Counted from the first letter of the stretch, positions 43,190 to 58,241 are shown. The stretch is DNA of 64,000 nucleotides from an uncultured SAR86 cluster bacterium (GCA_902601475.1 CACKNK010000006.1:1621-65620); one strand, 5' to 3'. The notes: a model not told the origin generated them from the sequence alone. Numbers and translations: made by a program.

Positions 43190-43822
43190 TTAGTTATACC
43201 TGTCGATGATTTGAATATTTAGGAAATAGGTAATTATTATCAATAAAAATGTTATCAAAAGAAATCTAAGAGCATATTTTGCACTCAGTTTAGAGTATTT
43301 CATTGCTATGTAAACACTTATATAGATGGCAAGAGCAAGGCAGGATAACAATATCTTTATTCGTGATTCAATATCTGGATCGCTGTATATTAAAAATCCT
43401 GTTGCCAGCGCAAAAATTAATACAATTAATCCGACTCCAAGAACTTTCAGTAGAAACTTAAATTGGCTCTCAATTGGGGTACGAAGGCTTGATTCTGATA
43501 AACCCTTTTTAAGATTAATAGAGTGCCTCTCCAATAATAATGCTTCAAAAATAGTAATAATTAAGATTGTGATACTCAAAATCGTTGCCAATACGTGAAG
43601 ATCATATAAAAAATCAGTATTTGCAAAGATTAATGCATACGAAGCACTGAAGGCAGCAGATACCAAACCTAATGAAACGGCATTACTAAAGAATCTTTTA
43701 AGCAAGACATAGATCGGAAGGCTTGAAAGGGTAAAAATTAGGAAAGGAGTGGCCATTAAATAAATTGTTAATCTTTTATATATTAACACTATCAAATTTA
43801 TCAAGCTTACCCTAAAATACAC
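43190..43822 (-). CDS. YpjD/CcsA-like inner membrane protein (cytochrome c assembly family); start may be the internal Met at 43756
   Basis: Polytopic membrane protein in the yfjD-ypjD arrangement. Starting at 43822 leaves only 24 nt to rpsP. Met23 (MATPFLIF) would leave 90 nt. Confidence 0.5.
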
Positions 43823-43846
43823 ACCTTTTTAGGATTAACAAAATTT

Positions 43847-44719
43847 ATGGTAGTAATTAGACTTGCAAAGAGTGGGGCAAAGAAAAACCCATATTTCTTT
43901 ATCACAGTAGCTGACTCTAGAATGCCTAGAGACGGTAGATTCATAGAAAGACTAGGTTTTTACAACCCATCTGCAAGAGGTTCTGAGGAAAGACTTCGTT
44001 TTAATACTGAGCGCTTTGATCATTGGGTCGGCCAAGGTGCACAAGTTTCAGATCGTGTGAAGGTTTTGCATCAAGAGGCTGAAATGTCTCCTGAAGATCT
44101 GGCTGCTAAATTCGAAAAAAGGGATTCTAAACGTCAAGCAAAAAAAGAAGCTAAAGCAGCAAAACTTGCAGAAGAAATGGCTGCATCTGAAGAGGCTGCA
44201 CCGGCAGAAGAGACTCCAGTAGAAGAAGCTCCAGCCGAAGAAGCCGCACCAGCAGAAGAAGCTCCAGCTGAGGAAGAAGCTCCAGCCGAAGAAGCTGCAC
44301 CAGCAGAAGAGGCTCCAGCTGAAGAAGCTGCACCTGCAGAAGAGGCTCCAGCTGAAGATGCTGCACCCGCAGAAGAGGCTCCAGTAGAAGAAGCTCCAGC
44401 TGAAGAAGAAGCTCCAGCTGAAGAAGCTGCACCAGCAGAAGAGGCTCCAGCTGAAGAAGCTGCACCTGCAGAAGAGGCTCCAGCTGAAGAAGCTGCACCA
44501 GCAGAAGAGGCTCCAGTAGAAGAAGCTCCAGCTGAAGAAGAAGCTCCAGCTGAAGAAGCTGCACCAGCAGAAGAGGCTCCAGCTGAAGAAGCTGCACCTG
44601 CAGAAGAGGCTCCAGCTGAAGAAGCTGCACCAGCAGAAGAGGCTCCAGTAGAAGAAGCTCCAGCTGAAGAAGAAGCTCCAGCTGAAGAAGATTCTCCATC
44701 AGATGACGAAAAGAAGTAA
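43847..44719 (+). CDS. rpsP: 30S ribosomal protein S16 with an approx. 210-aa acidic Glu/Ala/Pro-rich C-terminal extension
   Basis: First ~80 aa are canonical S16 ([35 protein letters not shown]). The same frame continues through ([11 protein letters not shown])n to TAA at 44717-44719. Confidence 0.9.
44216..44690 (+). repeat. coding tandem repeat in the rpsP tail: 132-bp unit (4 x 33-bp sub-units)
   Basis: 44381-44512 and 44513-44644 are identical base for base (checked by hand). 44645-44690 is a 46-nt partial third copy. 44216-44380 is a diverged 165-bp copy. Confidence 0.95.
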
Positions 44720-45227
44720 TTCTTTAGACGATAGCCACATATTAATTGGACGAATAGGTAGACCAAGAGGTCTCAAAGGTGAGTTTTTCATAAACTCATT
44801 TTCTGAATCATCAGAAGCTTTTTTAAAATATAAAAACTTTTTTCTTTATTCTGAATCAGAACTCGTTCCTGTTGATTTTGACTATTTAAAGAAACAGAAC
44901 CAGAAAATTATTGGAAAAATATCAGATATCAATACACCTGAAGATGCAGAAAGAATTAAAAATTCAGACCTTTTTTTGGATAAAAATGACCTTCCTGAAT
45001 TAGAAGACGGTTATTACTGGCATGAATTGTTAGGCATGAAGGTAATTAATTTAGATGGTGACGCTCTTGGAGAAGTGATTGCTATTAATAATTATGGATC
45101 AAACGACATGCTCGAAGTGAAGACCAAGAAGAAAAAACTACTTATTCCTTTTGTTAAAAACAGAATAATTTTTGATATCGATAAAGAAAAGAAAGTTATT
45201 AACGTTGATTGGTATGATTCCTACTGA
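44703..45227 (+). CDS. rimM: 16S rRNA processing protein RimM
   Basis: [15 protein letters not shown]-terminus. Position in rpsP-rimM-trmD-rplS. Confidence 0.9.
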
Positions 45228-45964
45228 TGGATATTAAATTTAATCTTATTACCTTATTTCCTGAAATCTATGATGCTTTGGATCATGGATTAATCGGTAA
45301 GGCCATTCAAAATAATGTAATCGAGTTAAATAAGATTCAATTACGAGATTTCGCAATTAATCAACATGGTCAGATAGATGGAAAACCGTTCGGAGGAGAA
45401 AAGGGCATGATTATGATGGTGGAGCCACTTGAAAATGCTTTGAAATCAATATCGCCCAAGAATAAACATATCGTTATAAATTTTTCACCTCAAGGAAAGC
45501 AATTAGGTCAAAACCTAGCTAAAAAAATGCTTGATTATGATGAAATTACTATTGTGAACGGAAGATATGAAGGTATTGATGAAAGGTTTATTGATAAATA
45601 TGTTGATTTAGAAGTTTCCTTGGGTGATTACGTTTTCAGCAATGGAGATTTGGCCAGCTTAGTTTTTATTGATGTTCTTGCAAGAATGATTCCTTCTGTC
45701 ATCGGAAAAGAGGAGTCTGTAACAGAAGACTCCTTCTTTAATGGACTGCTTAAAGGCCCCACATATACTCGACCTGAAGTCTATGATGGAATGAGTGTCC
45801 CAGAGATCCTGCTATCAGGAAATCATGAAGAAATAAAAGCTTGGCGAGAATATCAATCGATCAAGACCACACTTGAGAAAAGGCCTGAAATATTTGATAA
45901 AATAAAACTTACAAAAAAACAAAAAAAACTCTTGGAAGAATTAGATTCTAAGCGTATCCTATAG
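45227..45964 (+). CDS. trmD: tRNA (guanine37-N1)-methyltransferase
   Basis: ITLFPE, GRYEGIDERF, LSGNHEEI..WR. Confidence 0.95.
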   Translation: MDIKFNLITLFPEIYDALDHGLIGKAIQNNVIELNKIQLRDFAINQHGQIDGKPFGGEKGMIMMVEPLENALKSISPKNKHIVINFSPQGKQLGQNLAKKMLDYDEITIVNGRYEGIDERFIDKYVDLEVSLGDYVFSNGDLASLVFIDVLARMIPSVIGKEESVTEDSFFNGLLKGPTYTRPEVYDGMSVPEILLSGNHEEIKAWREYQSIKTTLEKRPEIFDKIKLTKKQKKLLEELDSKRIL

Positions 45965-45983
45965 CACATTTTAGGCCGTAGAC

Positions 45984-46592
45984 ATGTCAGATAAAGAAAT
46001 TGAAAACAACGCTTCTAACGAAGAAGCATCGGAAACAGTAGAAACTCCAGAATCAGTGGATTCTACTCCCGAAACAGCTGAAACTGTTGTTGAAGCTGAG
46101 GAAGCTTCAGCGCCTGAAGAATCTGTCCCTGAAGCACCCGCTGAGACTCCCGAACCTGAAGCAGATGTTCCTGCAGAAGAAGCTAGTGCTGCTGTGGAAG
46201 AGCCAGCTGAAGCTGTTTCAACAGCTAAGCTAGAAGAATTGTCGCCGGCGCAAATAGTTCAAAATTTCGAAAAATCTCAGTTAAAAGATGATGTACCTCC
46301 TTTTAGACCAGGAGATACTGTTGTTGTTTCAGTAAAAGTTAAAGAAGGTGAAAGAACTAGACTTCAAGCTTTTGAAGGCGTTGTTATGCACATCAAAAAT
46401 GCTGGTTTAAACTCATCATTCATCGTTAGAAAAATATCCAGCGGTATTGGTGTAGAAAGAACATTTCAAGTTCACAGCCCCATAATTGATTCCATCAAAG
46501 TTAAGCGTAAGGGCGACGTTAGAAAAGCTAAACTCTATTATTTAAGAGAGAGATCTGGAAGATCTGCTAGGATCAAAGAAAGACTCGAATAA
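45984..46592 (+). CDS. rplS: 50S ribosomal protein L19 with an approx. 85-aa acidic N-terminal extension (alternative in-frame TTG at 46239 would give a canonical-length protein)
   Basis: C-terminal 117 aa collinear with E. coli L19 ([29 protein letters not shown]). Upstream 85 codons are stop-free and E/A/P/T/S/V-rich. Confidence 0.85.
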
Positions 46593-46594
46593 TT

Positions 46595-47494
46595 ATGACT
46601 ATGGATACAAAAGAGAGTCATCTTATTGATTCTTTTTTGAGATTTTTACAGTTAGAAAAAGCTCTATCTAAAAATACCATAAGCTCTTATAAAACTGACA
46701 TTGGCGGTTTTAATCAGTGGTGCTCTGATCAAGCAATAAAATTTTCGGAAGTTAATTTGAGGCATGCTGAAAATTTCATTGTTAGTTTAAGAAAAAAAGA
46801 ACTTGCTCCTGCATCGATTTCAAGAAAAATTTCATCATTAAAATCCCTATTTGTTTACTTAAAAAAACAGCAACATATTAAAACTAATCCTTTTCAAGAC
46901 TTGGTCTTACCAAAAATTCCAAAATCTCTTCCTAAATCCATGTCGATGGCAGAGGTAAACACCCTGTTGGATGCACCGGATACTTCAACCTTTATAGGGT
47001 TACGGGATAAAACCATGTTGGAATTAATGTACGCAACAGGCTTGAGGGTTTCTGAGCTTGTAAACTTAAAGTATTCAAGTTTTGACTTTGAAAGAAGCGT
47101 TATTAAAGTTCTGGGCAAAGGATCGAAAGAGAGAATTATCCCCTTTGGCGACAGTGCACTTTCGTGGTTAAAACAATACATAGATTTTCGTAGGCAAAAC
47201 AATTTAAGCATGAACAGTAAATATTTTTTTATTAGTCAAAAGCTATCCCAAGTGACACGTCAGTCATTTTGGCAGCGCGTAGAACATTATCAAAAGATTG
47301 CATCCATTCCTTACAAGATATCACCGCATACACTTCGTCATGCTTTTGCGACTCACTTACTTAATAATGGAGCTGATCTTAGATCCGTACAAATGTTGCT
47401 TGGACATAGTGACCTTTCTACCACGCAAATATATACTCACATTGCAAAACAAAGACTTAGTGAGATGATTAAAAAACATCATCCGCGAGGGTAA
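46595..47494 (+). CDS. xerD: site-specific tyrosine recombinase XerD
   Basis: R..H..R..Y catalytic pattern (ATGLRVSEL, HTLRHAFATHLL, LLGHSDLSTTQIYTH). Conserved xerD-dsbC context. Confidence 0.9.
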   Translation: MTMDTKESHLIDSFLRFLQLEKALSKNTISSYKTDIGGFNQWCSDQAIKFSEVNLRHAENFIVSLRKKELAPASISRKISSLKSLFVYLKKQQHIKTNPFQDLVLPKIPKSLPKSMSMAEVNTLLDAPDTSTFIGLRDKTMLELMYATGLRVSELVNLKYSSFDFERSVIKVLGKGSKERIIPFGDSALSWLKQYIDFRRQNNLSMNSKYFFISQKLSQVTRQSFWQRVEHYQKIASIPYKISPHTLRHAFATHLLNNGADLRSVQMLLGHSDLSTTQIYTHIAKQRLSEMIKKHHPRG

Positions 47495-51542: not shown

Positions 51543-54500
51543 TTGCAGAGAATTTATTCAAAACTACTTTTATTAACACTATTTAGCACCTCCATTGTTG
51601 CTCAAGAGCAAATTGGTGTGGCTGCTGCAGTCAACCGTAATACTACTGACCTAACGCTGGAACAAGAAAGAAAACTCGTTGAAGCGGGTTATCAAATCAT
51701 TCAAAACCATACCATTGAAACCGATGAAATCGGTAAAGCTCAGATGCTCTTACTCGATGGAACCGCTTTCTCAGTTGGACCTAATTCAAGCGTGGTGCTT
51801 GATCGTTTTATTTATAATCCGGAAACAGCGGAAGGTTCCTTAGAAGTAACCGCACGAGGTCTTTTAAGAATTGTTGGTGGAAAGGTCACCAAAAAACAAC
51901 CCGCGCTGATAAGAACTAATTCAGCAACTGTGGGGATCAGAGGCGGAATCGGAATTGTCCAAACCGATGGCTCGCAAGTCAATGCGACCTTCTTGTACGG
52001 TGAGGAAATGACAGTGACCCCAAATTGTGTGGATCTTGATACGTTTGGCGATCAATGCGGTAGCGATTTTATTACCACCATCACCGAACCAGGTTTTTCA
52101 GTGACGGTTGAGTCAGCTGACTCTGAACCTTCAGAACCTGAGCCGGTAACTGAAGAAAGCTTAGAAGCCGTTCAAGATGAATTAGAGGCCAGTGAAGATG
52201 AGCCAGCCGAAGAAGAATCTTCAAGTGATGAATCTTCTTCAGAAGAAAGCTCTGATGAATCAAGTTCTGAAGAGTCCTCAAGCGAAGAGAGTTCAGATGA
52301 GTCTAGCTCAGAGGAATCTTCAAGCGAAGAGAGTTCTGATGAATCCTCTAGTGAAGAAAGCTCAGATGATTCAAGTTCTGACGAATCATCTAGTGATGAG
52401 TCCTCCTCAGATGAGTCTTCCAGCGATGAATCTTCTGCTGATGATTCAGTTGCCAGCGATAGCTCATCCGATGATGCATCTTCAGATTCATCAAGTGATG
52501 AACCTACTAATGAAGTTGCTCAAGAAACAGAATCAGATACTGAAGTTACGACTGAAGTTGCTGATGCTGGTGGTGATGGTGGAACAACTGAAGTTGAAGT
52601 TGATGAGGGACTTTTAGATAGCTCTGGAGTCTCTGATGTTTCTTCTGATGTGGCCCCTGATGAACTGGGTACCGCCGATGCGTTTGAAGTTGAAACCGAA
52701 GTTGATTTAGTTGATGTGGATGAGAGTCCAGCCGAAGAAGTCACCGAAGAAGTTGCGCAAACCACCCAAGAAACCACTGCAGAGGTCGCACCCATTTTTG
52801 AAGTGGAAACTACTGAAGTGGTTGAAAGTGTCGATGAAAATACGACTGAGATCAGCTTGGCATCTTTTGCTGTAGTCAATCCAGGCGATCAAAACTTTAC
52901 TGTGTCTGTCGAAGGTGAGGGCAGTGAGGCCTTTACTTATAACGAAGCAACCAACTCCTTAGAAATTACTGAAGCTTTGGATCATGAAAGCCAAGAAGCG
53001 GTTGAACTGACCGTGACCTTTACCAGCGAAAATGGTGATGTTCAAGAAGTTGCCTTAGCTTTAAATGTTGCTGATGTGGATGAAGCCGTTGAACTTGCTG
53101 TTGAACCGGTCAACACCATTAGTGAAGCTGCTATTAGTGCTGAACTCGTTGCCAATCAGGTCAATGTATCTGAAACGGTACCCGCTGGAACTGTGGTGGC
53201 TACTTTTAGTGCCACTGATCCTGAGGGCAATGCCTTAACTTATTCATTAACTGGAGCCGGTAGTGAACTGATGAGCGTTTCTGAAACCGGAGAAGTGACC
53301 CTTACTGGTAATCTAGATTTTGAAACGAATTCAACCCTAGTCATGACATTGGAAGTCTCTGATGGGACTAATACCACCACCGAAGAAATTACTATTAACG
53401 TTATTAACGATGATGAGCCTGCCACCATTGCAGCGACTTTAAGTGCTACCTCATTTGCAGAAAACTCTGCTGTGGGAGCTGCCATTGCATCGGTGAATGC
53501 CACCGATCCTGAAGGCAGTGCGGTGACTTACACATTATCAGGCACAGGCAGCGATAACTTTAGTATTGATACCAGCGGTAACATTACTCTTGCCAGCACC
53601 TTGGATTATGAAACGACAACCTCATATGAACTAACCGTCGTTGTCGATGATGGCACTTATGCTTCTACTGAAGTCATCACCGTGAGTGTTGCCGACGTCA
53701 ATGAAGCCCCAACATTAAGCGCAACGGTAGCCTTCAACGCTTTCCAAGAAAATACTGCTACCGGTACCACGATTGCTACGAGTTCAGTCACCGATCCGGA
53801 GGCAGGAGCCATTACGTACAGTCTTTCTGGCACCGGCAGTGAGAACTTTTCAGTCAGTTCTGATGGTACGGTGAGTTTAGCGAGCACCCTGGATTATGAA
53901 ACTGCCACTGGATATGAAATTACCCTAACAGCCTCCGATGGCGATAATACCGTTTCTGAAATCCTCACTATCAATGTGGGCGATATTAATGAAGCGCCAA
54001 CCGTTACCACAACTCTAGCAACCTCAAGTGTTGCAGAAGATGCAGCCACCGGAACTACCGTTGCGACCAGCACAGCAAGCGATCCAGAGTCCAGCACCAT
54101 CACTTATTCACTCAGCGGAACCGGTAGTGATAACTTTAGCGTTGATGCCAACGGTAATGTCACTGTGGCTAGTAGCTTAGATTATGAAACGACCACCTCT
54201 TATACCATTACTTTAACCGCTAGCGACGGGTCCAATTCAACCCAAGAAACCATCACCATTAATGTCAGTGACGTGGATGAATTTACTCTGGCACTTTCAA
54301 GTACGTCACCTGCTATTAACGAAGGCGTCAGCACTGGAACTCAAGTCGCTACTTCAACCTTAACCCAGCAAGACAGTGCTTCAGTAACTTATTCTTTATC
54401 AGGTACTGGCAGCGATAAGTTTGCCATTTCCAGCAGTGGGGTGATTACCACCGCAGCAGCGATGGATTTTGAAACCACCTCATCCTATTCACTCACTGTA

Positions 54501-57500
54501 ACTGTCACTGATGGGACTAATACTGATACTGAAACCATTAATATTAGTATTAATAATGTTTCTCTTAATACTCTAGCAACCACTTTAGCCAACAGCGGGG
54601 CAGCGCTGGCTGAATCATCCAGCTCAGGCACAGCTGTTGCTAGCTCCAGCATCAACAACCCCGACAGTGAAACGATTACCTATACGCTAAGCGGTACCGG
54701 TAGCAACAAATTCTCTGTTGATTCATCAGGAAATGTGACCACTAACGGAACGCTGGATTTTGAAACGGCTAAAAGCTATGCGCTAACTCTAACCGCCACT
54801 GCAGGCAGCACGTCAGTGACCGACACCTTTACAGTTAATGTCGGTAACGTAGCTGAGCTTAATGCAGCGGTGCTTCGCTATTCAGCAGCTTACAACTCAG
54901 TTTCACGCACTGGCTTTAGTGCCACTGCAACGCGAGGAGCTTCAGGATCGAGCTTACCAGCCTACTACTTAGAGCAAGTTGGTACGACTGCCACAACAAA
55001 TTTCAATGATGTTTTTGATCATGACGGTGATGTTCGAAACAACCATAGCCCTACAGTTAGAGTGGAAATTGGTGGTGGAACCCAACTTAACTTTGAGTAT
55101 ATTTTTCCAATAACCTCTCTTGGGGGCGCTGCAGGGGTTTATGCTCCAAGTATGTACGGCAGTTATGGTGTTGTGAATACAACTGTTCTCGGTAATAATG
55201 CTGCATATAGAGGGATTCTGACCAACCAAATATTAGCGGCTGCTGACGTGGTTGGTACTACCGGAAATTCACCTACCATAACTGATAATGAGATTGTAAG
55301 TGCCGGTGCATTCATGCAATATTCGGGATCAGGAAACGGCGTAAACGCATCAACAGGCGGCGATTTCGCCTTTATGACAACAAATTTAGCTGGTGCGTCT
55401 CTAAGCTACCAATCCTCAAGTGGACAACGCACGTATGGAGTCATTGTTGGTGATACTTCAACAAGTTACGGTAGCGGTTACACTGGAGTGGGCAGCTATT
55501 GGCAAAATGCGATTACCGGAGCTGGCTACACATTTCAAAATTGTGTGGCTGCCAACGTTAAGACTTGTCTTAATAATGCAGGCATTGATCTTGATGATGT
55601 AGGAATTATCGTAAATAACAGCCCTGGTACCGTTACATTTGGTTATAGCTACAGTGAACTTGCCGATTGGATTGATGGTGGAGGAAATTATGCTGCCACC
55701 ATGTGGGAACATTCGGGTTGGAGCACAAGAGGTATGAATGGCGACCAACATGAAGATATTTTTGCAGGCCTTGGGTGGAGTGGTTTTAGTGGTAATACCG
55801 TTGGTGGCCACGTAAGTCCTAGTACTTCAATTTCACAATCAACTGTTGATGCAATCACTAATGGCGGAGGTACTTTAAATTATTCAGCCCTTGTAGGTAG
55901 AACTCACTCCTTCAATGCGGCCGGGATTATGAACATCCCATCAGTTTGTAACTCTTTGGTAAATGGGACAATTAGTGGTGCCAGCGGCGCTTCAACTTTC
56001 ATCTGTGATCCAGGACGAACCGGTTCAAACGGTGCTGTTTTAGGGGTAGCAGATTACAATGCGTATACGTCTTCAGGTAGTGGTAATTCATTCATCATGA
56101 ATTGGTTTGCGGGTTTGAATATTGGCTCTGCAGTCACTTCCACCTACAACCTCTTTGAAGATCAAACAACTTTAGCAGGTCAAATTTATACCGATGCCAT
56201 GTGGGACACATTTGTTGGTTGTACTTCTGGTGATTGCTCTGATAAGTTTTCAGGAAATATACTTTATTTTGCTGTATTGCCTATTGAGTATCTAGGCACC
56301 AGTCTTAACTTAGATTCTGATAACTGGTTTTATCCTAACTTTATGCCCATGACCAATTCAAACATTTGGACCTATGGAGACGTGGGGTTACGTTATTGCT
56401 CTCCAGGAGCCAATGCTGGTTCTGAATGTTCCAGCCATACCTATGATGATGCTTATGCATGGCAATCGCTAGCCTTAAATCCTGTGTCCTCCTCAAGCCT
56501 CCACACAAATTCAAGAGAATATGATGTGGGGGGGAATGATATTCCTGAGGGCTCAAGCTTCTTTAAGCAAATGGTTAAATATGATGGAGTGGGTGTCGGG
56601 ATGTGGGCACAAATTTCCTTCGCTGACTCATATGCCGACGATAGTGATGCCAGTAATACTAGAGATGATCAACAAAGCTTACTCAATGTAGTAATCACAA
56701 ACATGAATCGACGCAGCAACATGACCTCGATGTACTCAGCCGGAGACAGCGGTTTTGGGATGGATGGTTATCATTATTGGTCCTATCAAGGGGCGACCAA
56801 TGCCAATGATAATGGTCTCGGAGTTGTTTACGGTACGTCACCGGTAGAATGCGCTACTTCCAATGAAACTGCTTGTTTCTGGGCACCGGATGCTAAAGAG
56901 TCAGCCGGCGGTACCGGCAATCCTTCAGACACTGCAGCTCCAAGTGCAATGTTCTTAACGTCTTCAGATCCATATGCATCAGGAAATATGGGATTAGGTG
57001 TTTCTTATAACGCTAACACCGATGCTTTTTTAACCGGTTCTTTTAATCAGGCTTTAATCAGACAAAATGTAAAAAATGGCAATGGTAATTGGCGGTCTTA
57101 CACCGATACCAGTACTTATCGAAAAACTAATTTAGGTCAGAACTCTTTCCCATCAAGCGGCTCGAGCACTTCAGGCACTTTAGATTGGAGTGGGTACTTT
57201 AATGGTATTTTGGAGTTTGATGTAAGCGGTGCCAGCAACAATCAATTCGCTTCCATTGGAACAGGCAGTACCCGAGCAAGCTTTACTTTTAATTATGGCA
57301 CTAACTTTGCTGAGGTCGTGGCGCCAATGGATATTACTGCATTTGCTTCAAATAATTACACAGCAAATTGGACCACTGTTGATACTGGCTCGATGACCTT
57401 AAAATTTGGAGACCTTGACAATACCGATGCAAAATCTGCATTTTTAGCCAATAAAGTTTTTGCTGCTGAAATTCAAGATGATGGCACACAGATTGATAGT

Positions 57501-58241
57501 ACTTCTGGTGGTTCCAACAATCTCGCTGGCGTTATGGTTACTTGGCAGAGCCTTGATAATCCTGATTCAACTTTGTACAACGGAATGTCGAATGTAGGTA
57601 ATGGCGATGCATTTAGTGATACTCAAGGGAATGCTAACTACGCATCATGGGGTTTTTGGGCTATGAGTTCTGCTGATATTGCTGTAGCTACCGGCGATCA
57701 AAACGCCTCGGTGCATTTAGGTACCTGGGTTGGCGGAGAACTCATCGATCAAAGTTTAATTCCAACCTCAGGATCGGCAAATATGAATGGAGGGGCAGTG
57801 TTTAATGTGGCTTATCGACATAATGCAAGCGGCACTGATTACGACGTGCATAAATACACCAGCACCGCAGATGTTAGCGCAACTTTTAATTGGGGTACAA
57901 GCGGATATTCAGGATCTATAACTTTTGAAAACTTTGATGATAAGAATCCAATTGTAGCGAATGCCGGCTTCTTTGATATCAATGGTTTCTTTACAGTGCC
58001 AATTGTTGGCACCGATCAACATTACAGCGGGAGCCTAACACCAAGCATGCAAAATGGCTGGTCGGGCACTGCATCAGTCAAGGGAAGTCTTTACGGCGGT
58101 CAATATACTGCGTATGGGGTTACACATACAGTGAGAGAAAGCGGAGGAAGCTTTGACGTAAATATTTACAAGACTGGCGATACTTCAACTGCTGGAGCTA
58201 ATGATTTTTATACGGCAGAAGGTATTTATTTAATCTATTAA
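51543..58241 (+). CDS. giant secreted surface/adhesin-like protein (2,232 aa): signal peptide, FecR-like domain, poly-Ser/Asp/Glu tract, cadherin-like repeats, large unassigned C-terminal region
   Basis: Uninterrupted 6.7-kb ORF. TTG start with GGGAG about 10 nt upstream. Signal peptide MQRIYSKLLLLTLFSTSIVA. Repeats visible by eye in the translation. Confidence 0.9.
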   Translation: MQRIYSKLLLLTLFSTSIVAQEQIGVAAAVNRNTTDLTLEQERKLVEAGYQIIQNHTIETDEIGKAQMLLLDGTAFSVGPNSSVVLDRFIYNPETAEGSLEVTARGLLRIVGGKVTKKQPALIRTNSATVGIRGGIGIVQTDGSQVNATFLYGEEMTVTPNCVDLDTFGDQCGSDFITTITEPGFSVTVESADSEPSEPEPVTEESLEAVQDELEASEDEPAEEESSSDESSSEESSDESSSEESSSEESSDESSSEESSSEESSDESSSEESSDDSSSDESSSDESSSDESSSDESSADDSVASDSSSDDASSDSSSDEPTNEVAQETESDTEVTTEVADAGGDGGTTEVEVDEGLLDSSGVSDVSSDVAPDELGTADAFEVETEVDLVDVDESPAEEVTEEVAQTTQETTAEVAPIFEVETTEVVESVDENTTEISLASFAVVNPGDQNFTVSVEGEGSEAFTYNEATNSLEITEALDHESQEAVELTVTFTSENGDVQEVALALNVADVDEAVELAVEPVNTISEAAISAELVANQVNVSETVPAGTVVATFSATDPEGNALTYSLTGAGSELMSVSETGEVTLTGNLDFETNSTLVMTLEVSDGTNTTTEEITINVINDDEPATIAATLSATSFAENSAVGAAIASVNATDPEGSAVTYTLSGTGSDNFSIDTSGNITLASTLDYETTTSYELTVVVDDGTYASTEVITVSVADVNEAPTLSATVAFNAFQENTATGTTIATSSVTDPEAGAITYSLSGTGSENFSVSSDGTVSLASTLDYETATGYEITLTASDGDNTVSEILTINVGDINEAPTVTTTLATSSVAEDAATGTTVATSTASDPESSTITYSLSGTGSDNFSVDANGNVTVASSLDYETTTSYTITLTASDGSNSTQETITINVSDVDEFTLALSSTSPAINEGVSTGTQVATSTLTQQDSASVTYSLSGTGSDKFAISSSGVITTAAAMDFETTSSYSLTVTVTDGTNTDTETINISINNVSLNTLATTLANSGAALAESSSSGTAVASSSINNPDSETITYTLSGTGSNKFSVDSSGNVTTNGTLDFETAKSYALTLTATAGSTSVTDTFTVNVGNVAELNAAVLRYSAAYNSVSRTGFSATATRGASGSSLPAYYLEQVGTTATTNFNDVFDHDGDVRNNHSPTVRVEIGGGTQLNFEYIFPITSLGGAAGVYAPSMYGSYGVVNTTVLGNNAAYRGILTNQILAAADVVGTTGNSPTITDNEIVSAGAFMQYSGSGNGVNASTGGDFAFMTTNLAGASLSYQSSSGQRTYGVIVGDTSTSYGSGYTGVGSYWQNAITGAGYTFQNCVAANVKTCLNNAGIDLDDVGIIVNNSPGTVTFGYSYSELADWIDGGGNYAATMWEHSGWSTRGMNGDQHEDIFAGLGWSGFSGNTVGGHVSPSTSISQSTVDAITNGGGTLNYSALVGRTHSFNAAGIMNIPSVCNSLVNGTISGASGASTFICDPGRTGSNGAVLGVADYNAYTSSGSGNSFIMNWFAGLNIGSAVTSTYNLFEDQTTLAGQIYTDAMWDTFVGCTSGDCSDKFSGNILYFAVLPIEYLGTSLNLDSDNWFYPNFMPMTNSNIWTYGDVGLRYCSPGANAGSECSSHTYDDAYAWQSLALNPVSSSSLHTNSREYDVGGNDIPEGSSFFKQMVKYDGVGVGMWAQISFADSYADDSDASNTRDDQQSLLNVVITNMNRRSNMTSMYSAGDSGFGMDGYHYWSYQGATNANDNGLGVVYGTSPVECATSNETACFWAPDAKESAGGTGNPSDTAAPSAMFLTSSDPYASGNMGLGVSYNANTDAFLTGSFNQALIRQNVKNGNGNWRSYTDTSTYRKTNLGQNSFPSSGSSTSGTLDWSGYFNGILEFDVSGASNNQFASIGTGSTRASFTFNYGTNFAEVVAPMDITAFASNNYTANWTTVDTGSMTLKFGDLDNTDAKSAFLANKVFAAEIQDDGTQIDSTSGGSNNLAGVMVTWQSLDNPDSTLYNGMSNVGNGDAFSDTQGNANYASWGFWAMSSADIAVATGDQNASVHLGTWVGGELIDQSLIPTSGSANMNGGAVFNVAYRHNASGTDYDVHKYTSTADVSATFNWGTSGYSGSITFENFDDKNPIVANAGFFDINGFFTVPIVGTDQHYSGSLTPSMQNGWSGTASVKGSLYGGQYTAYGVTHTVRESGGSFDVNIYKTGDTSTAGANDFYTAEGIYLIY
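51690..52020 (+). other. FecR-like beta-sandwich domain of the giant protein (approximate bounds)
   Basis: GKAQMLLLDGTAFSVGPNSSVVLDRFIYNP...LEVTARGLLRIVGGKV...ATVGIRGG resembles FecR/LipL45-type domains (pattern recognition only). Confidence 0.5.
52190..52505 (+). repeat. poly-Ser/Asp/Glu low-complexity coding tract: (SSSEE-SSDE-SSSEE)x3 then (SSSDE)x4
   Basis: About 105 aa, nearly all S, D or E. Peptide repeats are exact but encoded with different Ser/Glu/Asp codons in each unit. Confidence 0.95.
52855..54860 (+). repeat. tandem array of cadherin-like domains (1 degenerate + 6 clear, ~97 aa each)
   Basis: Recurring V.E...GT.VAT..ATDPE....TYSLSGTGS..F.....G.VT....LDYET..SY.LT..A.DG......I.INV.DVNEAP. 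Approximate unit boundaries: 53160, 53441, 53723, 54013, 54294, 54583. Confidence 0.8.
57640..58238 (+). other. C-terminal beta-barrel-like module of the giant protein (TbpB-type or OM-anchor-type; speculative)
   Basis: Alternating-residue strands separated by Gly/Asn/Ser turns (GSANMNGGAVFNV, VSATFNWGTSGYSGSITF, ASVKGSLYGG, YTAEGIYLIY) with a terminal aromatic residue. Confidence 0.35.

Follow-up and report, generated by a model that had tools for sequence, protein, structure and literature searches.

A tandem-repeat-encoded acidic tail of variable length on ribosomal protein bS16 of an uncultured SAR86 cluster bacterium

Bacterial ribosomal protein S16 (bS16) is a small protein, represented in the E. 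coli ribosome by a chain of 82 amino acids (aa). The rpsP gene found in a 64,000-nucleotide (nt) stretch of DNA from an uncultured SAR86 cluster bacterium (GCA_902601475.1, CACKNK010000006.1:1621-65620; this whole stretch is referred to below as the window) encodes a bS16 of 290 aa, in which the canonical domain is followed by a long tail rich in Glu, Ala, and Pro that is specified by tandem DNA repeats. Such a gene raises the questions of whether the tail is a genuine and translated part of the protein, how its length is generated and maintained, and what it might do on the ribosome. The interpretation favored here, to which we assign a probability of roughly 70%, with most of the weight on its directly demonstrated parts, is that of a translated bS16 composed of four modules, in which a minisatellite-encoded spacer would form an anchored polyanionic bristle. 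The bristle function, taken by itself, is put forward tentatively, at somewhat less than even odds.

The protein is a bona fide bS16. The Pfam domain Ribosomal_S16 (PF00886) covers aa 9-68 with a score of 80 bits (the cut-off is 27), and the best PDB matches of the 290-aa protein are bS16 chains. A structural model was built with AlphaFold2 (AF2) from an alignment of 39 sequences; in Foldseek, its core, and the core alone, matches solved bS16 chains with template modeling scores (normalized to the target) of 0.86 to 0.92 and a root mean square deviation of 1.8 Å. The gene order rpsP-rimM-trmD-rplS, assigned by Pfam matches of the three downstream open reading frames (ORFs), is that of the classical operon, and this synteny is also seen in relatives. 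The initial annotation had described a 290-aa ORF in which the canonical S16 domain runs on into a Lys-rich stretch and a series of 11-aa blocks, and the peptides that it quoted proved to be correct. The protein has a mass of 30.6 kDa and an isoelectric point of 4.06, that of the core being ∼10, and an exact-sequence look-up returned no other record of the 290-aa sequence. It consists of a core, a capped basic helix, a hypervariable acidic spacer, and a terminal peptide. These modules and the repeats that encode the spacer are located as follows (evidence in parentheses; pLDDT is the predicted local distance difference test score of the AF2 model, and TRF is Tandem Repeats Finder).

43847..44719, plus strand: rpsP (bS16) coding sequence, 290 aa plus stop (ORF list, Pfam PF00886, PDB bS16 matches, AF2 core fold)
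43847..44083, plus strand: canonical S16 core, aa 1-79 (pLDDT of 80-94, beta/alpha core; aligns over residues 1-79 with gammaproteobacterial bS16 chains of 79-83 aa)
44084..44194, plus strand: conserved linker, aa 80-116, with an (L/M)SPE(E/D)L cap and a Lys-rich helix (AF2, alignment of relatives, alignment with the Coxiella bS16 extension)
44179..44690, plus strand: in-frame tandem array of 33-nt units nested in 132-nt units, encoding the Ala/Glu/Pro tail (TRF, unit map, composition)
44249..44380, plus strand: older, diverged 132-nt copy with 5 mismatches to the next copy (direct comparison)
44381-44512 and 44513-44644, plus strand: two 132-nt copies, identical at 132 of 132 bases (direct comparison)
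44645..44690, plus strand: 46-nt partial copy, identical to the start of the unit (direct comparison)
44690..44716, plus strand: C-terminal peptide DSPSDDEKK, lineage consensus SEEESSDDEKK (conservation counts in 59 genes)

DNA of relatives was taken from the metagenome-assembled genome (MAG) TMED104 (L001, the closest genome, with 97% identity), from ENA contigs, and from 80 metagenome loci found via RimM; the survey comprised 59 complete relative rpsP genes. The (L/M)SPE(E/D)L cap motif is present in 56 of these 59, residues S81, L85, K100, and E110 of the linker are invariant in the alignment of 39 sequences, and AF2, run with that alignment, models aa 82-116 as one long helix with pLDDT of ∼85. 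At the other end of the tail, the Ser at position -6 and the Glu at position -3 are invariant in all 59 genes, and the Lys at position -2 is found in 55 of them. The part between these elements is defined by its composition. In the window protein, aa 111-281 contain 68 Ala, 65 Glu, and 30 Pro residues out of 171 and carry a net charge of -66. Across the relatives, the spacer ranges from 30 to 179 aa, with an acidic fraction of 0.35 to 0.52, an Ala fraction of 0.18 to 0.49, a Pro fraction of 0.01 to 0.20, and basic residues making up no more than 0.06. Residues 117-290 have pLDDT values of 40-50 and no DSSP elements, so the tail is predicted to be intrinsically disordered. Digestion with trypsin would leave a peptide of ∼180 residues between K106 and K289, so that the tail would escape standard proteomics. 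Searches of PDB sequences with the tail alone and with the tip alone gave only compositional matches, namely cytochrome c subunit tails, eL14, and histone H2B.

The initial annotation considered the tail to be in frame and coding, and the relatives bear this out. With aa 1-122 as the query, a search retrieved some proteins that are almost the same (98-100%) together with hundreds that share ∼70% identity with it; nearly all of these relatives have 135-210 aa, Glu/Ala/Pro-rich tails, and the common ending ...SSDDEK(K/Q). The survey of rpsP length in related genomes that had been proposed as a check was run on the 59 complete genes: all of them keep the tail in frame (total length 157-306 aa, median 201), no stop was found in the S16 frame of the tail in any of them, and the tail region is non-coding in none. 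Further evidence comes from the junction with the next gene of the operon.

44703..45227, plus strand: rimM (ORF list; Pfam RimM and PRC_RimM)

The ATG codon of rimM lies within the codons for the S16 terminal DDEKK, with no obvious Shine-Dalgarno sequence, so that the two genes overlap by 17 nt (44703-44719); the relatives conserve this overlap at 14-17 nt. In pairwise comparisons of seven lineages, the differences within the overlap amount to 62 synonymous and 16 nonsynonymous ones in the S16 frame, as opposed to 0 synonymous and 62 nonsynonymous ones in the RimM frame, i.e., the changes are mostly synonymous in the S16 frame only. This codon pattern shows the S16 frame to be under selection to its very end, so that the tail is both coding and translated. 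The overlap also suggests translational coupling, by termination-reinitiation, of rimM to translation of the full S16 tail.

The DNA that encodes the spacer is described by TRF (44179-44690) either as 15.5 copies of a 33-nt period with 84% matches or as 3.9 copies of a 132-nt period with 95% matches and a score of 891. The unit map resolves it into 15 units of 33 nt that encode two 11-aa types, X and Y, in the order ...Y Y Y' X YYY X YYY X, followed by 13 residues. Both periods are multiples of 3, and the array contains no indels. At a lag of 132 nt, identity is continuous over positions 44369-44690, which corresponds to 322 nt or 2.44 copies, and the two identical 132-nt copies represent the latest in-frame expansion. 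The initial annotation had reported these two copies, the diverged copy that precedes them, the 46-nt partial copy that follows, and the 33-bp sub-periodicity, all of which were reproduced. The array is far beyond chance: exact 40-mers recur within the 64-kb window only here, and the window contains no other large tandem array. Its G+C content of 56%, versus 38% in the window, is due to the prevalence of GCN, CCN, and GAR codons. A count of synonymous and nonsynonymous differences among the 33-nt units (123 and 260, respectively) was discarded because unit types X and Y differ by a register shift.

Copy number was expected to vary between close strains, and it does, with lengths from 147 to ∼237 aa as against 290 aa in the window. 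The S16 protein of MAG TMED104 has 202 aa and 7 units (...Y X Y X) compared to the 15 in the window, a gap of exactly eight 33-nt units, or 264 nt. Contigs with 92-98% DNA identity to the window in the 5' part of rpsP and in rimM encode proteins of 147, 157, 163, 168, 178, and 186 aa, and one further contig of this kind encodes 237 aa with a 63-nt period. In a close strain, represented by a 464-kb "_pilon" contig, the starts of rpsP and rimM are 690 nt apart, versus 856 nt in the window, which corresponds to ∼235 aa; the rpsP gene on this contig carries one frameshift. Among the 59 complete genes, 47 hold at least two nucleotide-perfect tandem copies, with periods of 12 to 132 nt that differ between lineages, and distant relatives build the spacer from other units, with periods of 12 to 90 nt. 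The window has the longest period (132 nt) and the second-longest perfect stretch (322 nt, compared to 326 nt in locus L114). Every unit length found is divisible by 3, the scan of the relatives for perfect repeats having covered only periods of this kind, whereas a phase-variable contingency locus would be marked by a unit that is not divisible by 3. The repeats thus turn over and their period differs by lineage, while the acidity (35-52%) and the terminal motif persist. This comparison of genes gives good support to the view that the array is a coding minisatellite, with turnover through slippage or unequal recombination.

The extent of this variation is not the same everywhere. In another species (L086 / P0183), a 201-aa S16 is identical in 62 blocks of the collection, and the rate of tail change is therefore not uniform between species: tail length is stable in some species and hypervariable in the species of the window. 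In a sub-clade comprising L147, L151, L153-L155, L157, and L158, the Glu/Ala/Pro units are replaced by DAVDAAKDVVEDVVEAAE-type repeats, which in L153 and L154 have 54-nt periods; these tails are nearly Pro-free and possibly helical, and the sub-clade keeps the terminal SEGESS(D/E)(N/D)EKK (e.g., SEGESSDNEKK). Other long tails among the relatives belong to proteins of 306 aa (AACY020283401), 267, 264, and 244 aa; the first of these comes from what we take, by its accession prefix, to be a Global Ocean Sampling contig, presumably made of long Sanger reads. The longest S16-type proteins elsewhere, among the 150 best matches in a set of 1.84 billion representative proteins, have 279, 249, 241, and 240 aa. 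A length of 290 aa is therefore near the global maximum, with only the 306-aa relative being longer among the S16 proteins found.

The same operon encodes a second ribosomal protein with an acidic extension.

45227..45964, plus strand: trmD, third gene of the operon (Pfam tRNA_m1G_MT, 172 bits)
45984..46592, plus strand: rplS (bL19), 202 aa (Pfam L19 covers aa 91-200 only)
45984-46247, plus strand: lineage-specific acidic N-terminal extension of bL19, ∼88 aa, charge -25 (Pfam coverage, composition)

This bL19 extension is found in all relatives examined, and for most of the 120 best matches the length of bL19 lies between 194 and 207 aa. No tandem array was detected within it in the TRF scan of the whole window, and its near-fixed length contrasts with the hypervariable S16 tail. 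A comparable extension is absent from every solved bacterial bL19. In one relative (L085, 4846-5619, ENA ERZ17174936), bL19 has 257 aa, with the N-terminus MAEEKKKGFFSRLFSRSKEE, and its residues 32-67 give a sub-threshold Rho_N/HeH-like Pfam match (E=0.11). This N-terminus appears to us to resemble the N-terminal membrane-targeting motif of E. coli FtsY. Within positions 43500-46800, no promoters or terminators above the shuffled expectation were detected on the plus strand, and "terminators" predicted inside the repeat were rejected as antisense artifacts of the CAGCTG-containing units.

Ala/Glu-rich extensions of S16 are already documented. According to passages in a survey of low-complexity regions (LCRs), S16 ranks, with 186, among the bacterial proteins richest in LCRs, Ala and Glu make up more than 70% in 157 of 187 S16 LCRs and in 24 of 32 L19 LCRs, and the function of these regions is called an open question (Ntountoumi et al., NAR 2019, PMC6821194). 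The window tail resembles these LCRs in that Ala and Glu account for 133 of the 171 residues (78%) in aa 111-281, which exceeds the 70% criterion for an Ala/Glu-rich LCR on S16 (PMC6821194), and bL19 carries an acidic extension here as well. Neither this marine lineage nor tandem repeats, copy-number polymorphism, or conservation of a terminal peptide is mentioned in the same passages.

In the PDB, the best match (E value of 1e-32) is the 137-aa bS16 of entries 9t0z, 9t61, and 9tze, whose organism is Coxiella burnetii (PMC13392368). The alignment extends past the core, and the Coxiella protein shares a basic segment with a KSPEE cap and a short acidic end of Ala, Glu, and Pro; it differs in having only ∼55 aa beyond the core, and the aligned chain is devoid of a DDEKK-type terminal motif. 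Unlike the window bL19, Coxiella bL19 (115 aa) has no extension, and the Coxiella ribosome paper (PMC13392368) includes no discussion of bS16. Actinobacterial S16 proteins (147 aa in Cutibacterium acnes and 156-162 aa in Mycobacterium) also carry a lineage-specific C-terminal extension, which is shorter than the window tail; its distal part aligns with the query only through low-complexity sequence, and similarity is established for the core only. In C. acnes, the proximal part of this extension is ordered on the 30S subunit, where it contacts uS4 and h17, while its distal end is invisible (PMC10085706). Solved ribosomes have 85-113 of the 162 residues of Mycobacterium tuberculosis bS16 modeled, 85 of the 188 in Flavobacterium johnsoniae, and 97-118 of the 192 in Porphyromonas gingivalis; the long tails of these Bacteroidota bS16 proteins are presumably disordered, and the bS16 tail is not discussed in the F. 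johnsoniae ribosome paper. The mention, in the initial annotation, of extended S16 proteins in mycobacteria and other lineages was thus correct. The S16 proteins of Rhodobacterales and other alphaproteobacteria (111-198 aa) show the same succession of a basic segment and an Ala/Glu/Pro tail, with a net charge of down to -21, but differ in the linker (…ERNNPKKG.PGKKA…), lack the SDDEKK terminus, and in most cases extend 35-60 aa past the core; no literature on bS16 extensions in Alphaproteobacteria was found. In the neighboring Oceanospirillales and Burkholderiales, S16 has 80-93 aa. The claim that the tail is unusual therefore holds for its degree, 290 aa being near the top, but not for its kind, as acidic Ala/Glu(/Pro) tails are the rule in the marine lineage and in Rhodobacterales and have been catalogued (PMC6821194). 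The window protein is an extreme, repeat-driven, and length-polymorphic member of this group, and its conserved anchor helix and conserved terminal peptide appear to be new.

Outside S16, mammalian eL14 (RPL14) offers a compositional match, with a C-terminal, repeat-encoded tail rich in Ala and Pro, although this tail is basic (Lys-rich), eukaryotic, and unrelated in sequence. Human RPL14 carries a polymorphic trinucleotide repeat. Repeats of the (EEAPA)n type also serve as linkers in unrelated proteins. In archaeal and eukaryotic P-stalk proteins and bacterial SSB tails, a flexible leash, such as an Ala/Pro/Glu-rich hinge, is combined with a conserved acidic tip. These proteins are not homologous to the S16 tail, and the hydrophobic, partner-binding tip that they possess is absent from S16, which ends in DDEKK. 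A factor-recruiting tail of the P-stalk type, which would be marked by a conserved hydrophobic tip for translation GTPases, was accordingly rejected, the PDB tail and tip searches having found no P-stalk protein or SSB.

Alternative explanations concern first of all the reality of the tail. S16 could end near codon 85-115, the repeat being non-coding or part of an antisense gene, for which long ORFs on the minus strand (44134..44766 and 44151..44699) might be taken as evidence. However, these ORFs are stop-free by-products of a GAA/GCT/CCA repeat, and, given that none of the 59 relatives has a stop in the S16 frame and that the terminal motif is conserved in that very frame, the comparative data have already refuted this reading, whose probability is negligible. 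The two minus-strand ORFs (210 aa and 182 aa, respectively, of the SSAGASS and LLQLE types) could possibly give rise to mis-annotation by gene callers. A less easily dismissed, albeit unlikely, explanation is that a real tail has been given a wrong number of identical 132-nt copies in the course of assembly, the repeat cycle having been mis-traversed. The perfectly periodic stretch of 322 nt exceeds common short-read lengths, and short-read assembly is indeed troubled at this locus, as the initial annotation had warned. In 54 of the 80 RimM-anchored loci, the contig breaks off no more than 1600 nt upstream of rimM, and 27 of these 54 ends are located ≤316 nt upstream of rimM, inside the acidic repeat (20% expected, binomial P=6e-7). 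In addition, many database versions are truncated or frameshifted, with P0004, P0011, P0012, P0016, and P0017 being frameshifted in the repeat or at the A-run 44113-44119, and the exact 290-aa protein has no other record. Yet the diverged third copy, with its 5 mismatches, attests to an evolutionary history of the 132-nt structure, tails of comparable length (306, 267, 264, and 244 aa) arise independently, L114 has its own perfect array of 326 nt, and the long contig of the close strain supports a tail in a protein of ∼235 aa. The frameshifted public S16 calls look like sequencing or polishing errors and sit in assemblies with further signs of error; P0107 is likewise among them, and such calls have spurious KKLQ- or RRSS-type tails. 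Two proteins in which the S16 N-terminus is joined to the L19 core, P0134 (341 aa) and P0343 (257 aa), were rejected as real fusions, since rimM and trmD would have to be deleted; they are probable chimeric assemblies that jump between two similar acidic regions.

If the tail is accepted as real, the mechanism proposed for it can be outlined as follows. Spacer units (15/18 nt nested in 33 nt, then in 66 or 132 nt) are gained and lost by replication slippage or unequal recombination, and since they are multiples of 3 nt, the frame and the overlapping rimM start are kept through this turnover. If the C. acnes bS16 extension is taken as an analogy, the basic helix may lie on the 30S body, in contact with rRNA and/or uS4, and anchor a tail with a charge of about -66. 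The tail could then act through its bulk negative charge and disorder, as an entropic and electrostatic bristle on the solvent-exposed side of the small subunit; such action through bulk properties would account for the conservation of acidity in the face of drift in sequence and length. The charged terminal peptide may be a cap that provides protease protection or the termination/re-initiation context for rimM, or it may be a short binding motif. Several points weigh against this interpretation. Length variation among near-identical strains would also be expected of a neutral, tolerated repeat; the exact 132-nt copy number of the window is plausible rather than certain; the placement of the basic helix on the 30S subunit is by analogy; and the pairwise codon counts in the overlap are not phylogenetically independent, although their direction is unambiguous. 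Moreover, a ribosome contains thousands of rRNA phosphates, and the charges of about -66 on S16 and -25 on bL19, ∼90 in all, are few compared to the rRNA backbone, so a simple charge shield is not compelling.

The points about neutrality can be taken further: the tail could be a functionless low-complexity expansion, tolerated because the C-terminus of S16 is solvent-exposed and regenerated by slippage. The two-fold length variation among near-identical strains, the turnover of the repeat sequence, and the invisibility of such tails in every solved ribosome that has one would all fit. Such drift seems, nevertheless, an improbable explanation for a tail that none of the 59 complete relatives has lost (the minimum being 157 aa), that retains 35-52% acidity despite changes in sequence, that ends in a peptide under purifying selection, and that, by our estimate, raises ribosomal-protein mass by roughly 3%, in a gene that is highly expressed; the second acidic extension, kept on bL19 at a near-fixed length, also speaks against it. 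Somewhat more doubtful still is the suggestion that the acidic spacer serves as a flexible leash and that the terminal SEEESSDDEKK binds a partner, be it a protein factor, the basic helix of S16 itself, or some basic surface of the ribosome, with the invariant Ser, in its acidophilic S-D-D-E context, being possibly regulated. In its favor, the terminal peptide is conserved across lineages with unrelated spacers, the changes in the overlap are mostly synonymous in the S16 frame, and the architecture resembles the leash-plus-tip tails of SSB and P-stalk proteins. On the other hand, there is no known partner, the motif has no hydrophobic anchor, the tail and tip searches gave compositional matches only, and AF2 shows no confident contact; the conservation of the tip is also explicable by a C-terminal cap or by the termination context. 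A more elaborate version, in which the tail is a length-tunable leash that presents an S-D-D-E-K-K tip to a partner and, together with the bL19 extension, forms a lineage-specific regulatory layer on the ribosomes of an abundant clade of marine gammaproteobacteria, tuned between strains by a variable number of tandem repeats, is a long shot. The conceivable partners are equally speculative; they include a basic ribosomal surface close to where mRNA enters, a factor for assembly or hibernation, and the basic helix of S16, which would then act as an autoinhibitory switch. The anchored acidic bristle stays the preferred reading of the spacer, in the tentative terms given above.

With the spacer varying freely in sequence and length and the acidity, the basic anchor helix, and the terminal peptide remaining constant, this lineage indicates which features are worth mutating. 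It provides a clean natural experiment on the Ala/Glu-rich tails of S16 and L19, whose function is acknowledged as an open question in the passages on these LCRs (PMC6821194). The repeat also represents a strain-level length marker within an essential single-copy gene. For metagenomics, its importance is that it breaks short-read assemblies and yields gene calls that are chimeric or carry frameshifts. Genome-based taxonomy relies on a set of bacterial marker genes that includes S16 (TIGR00002), and S16 calls and tail lengths in MAGs of this clade are therefore untrustworthy unless derived from long reads.

Elsewhere in the window, a search of positions 1-64000 against Rfam at the gathering threshold gave no match, and thus no tRNA, rRNA, riboswitch, or known leader. 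The remaining genes are ordinary housekeeping ones, including sdhA, sucA, ileS, murJ, lysS, thrC, groEL, xerD, dsbC, and selO. The only other repeat-bearing gene in the window (51543-58241) encodes a 2232-aa protein with multiple cadherin domains and contains, at 52161-52369, acidic Ser/Glu-rich tandem repeats with periods of 21, 27, and 42.

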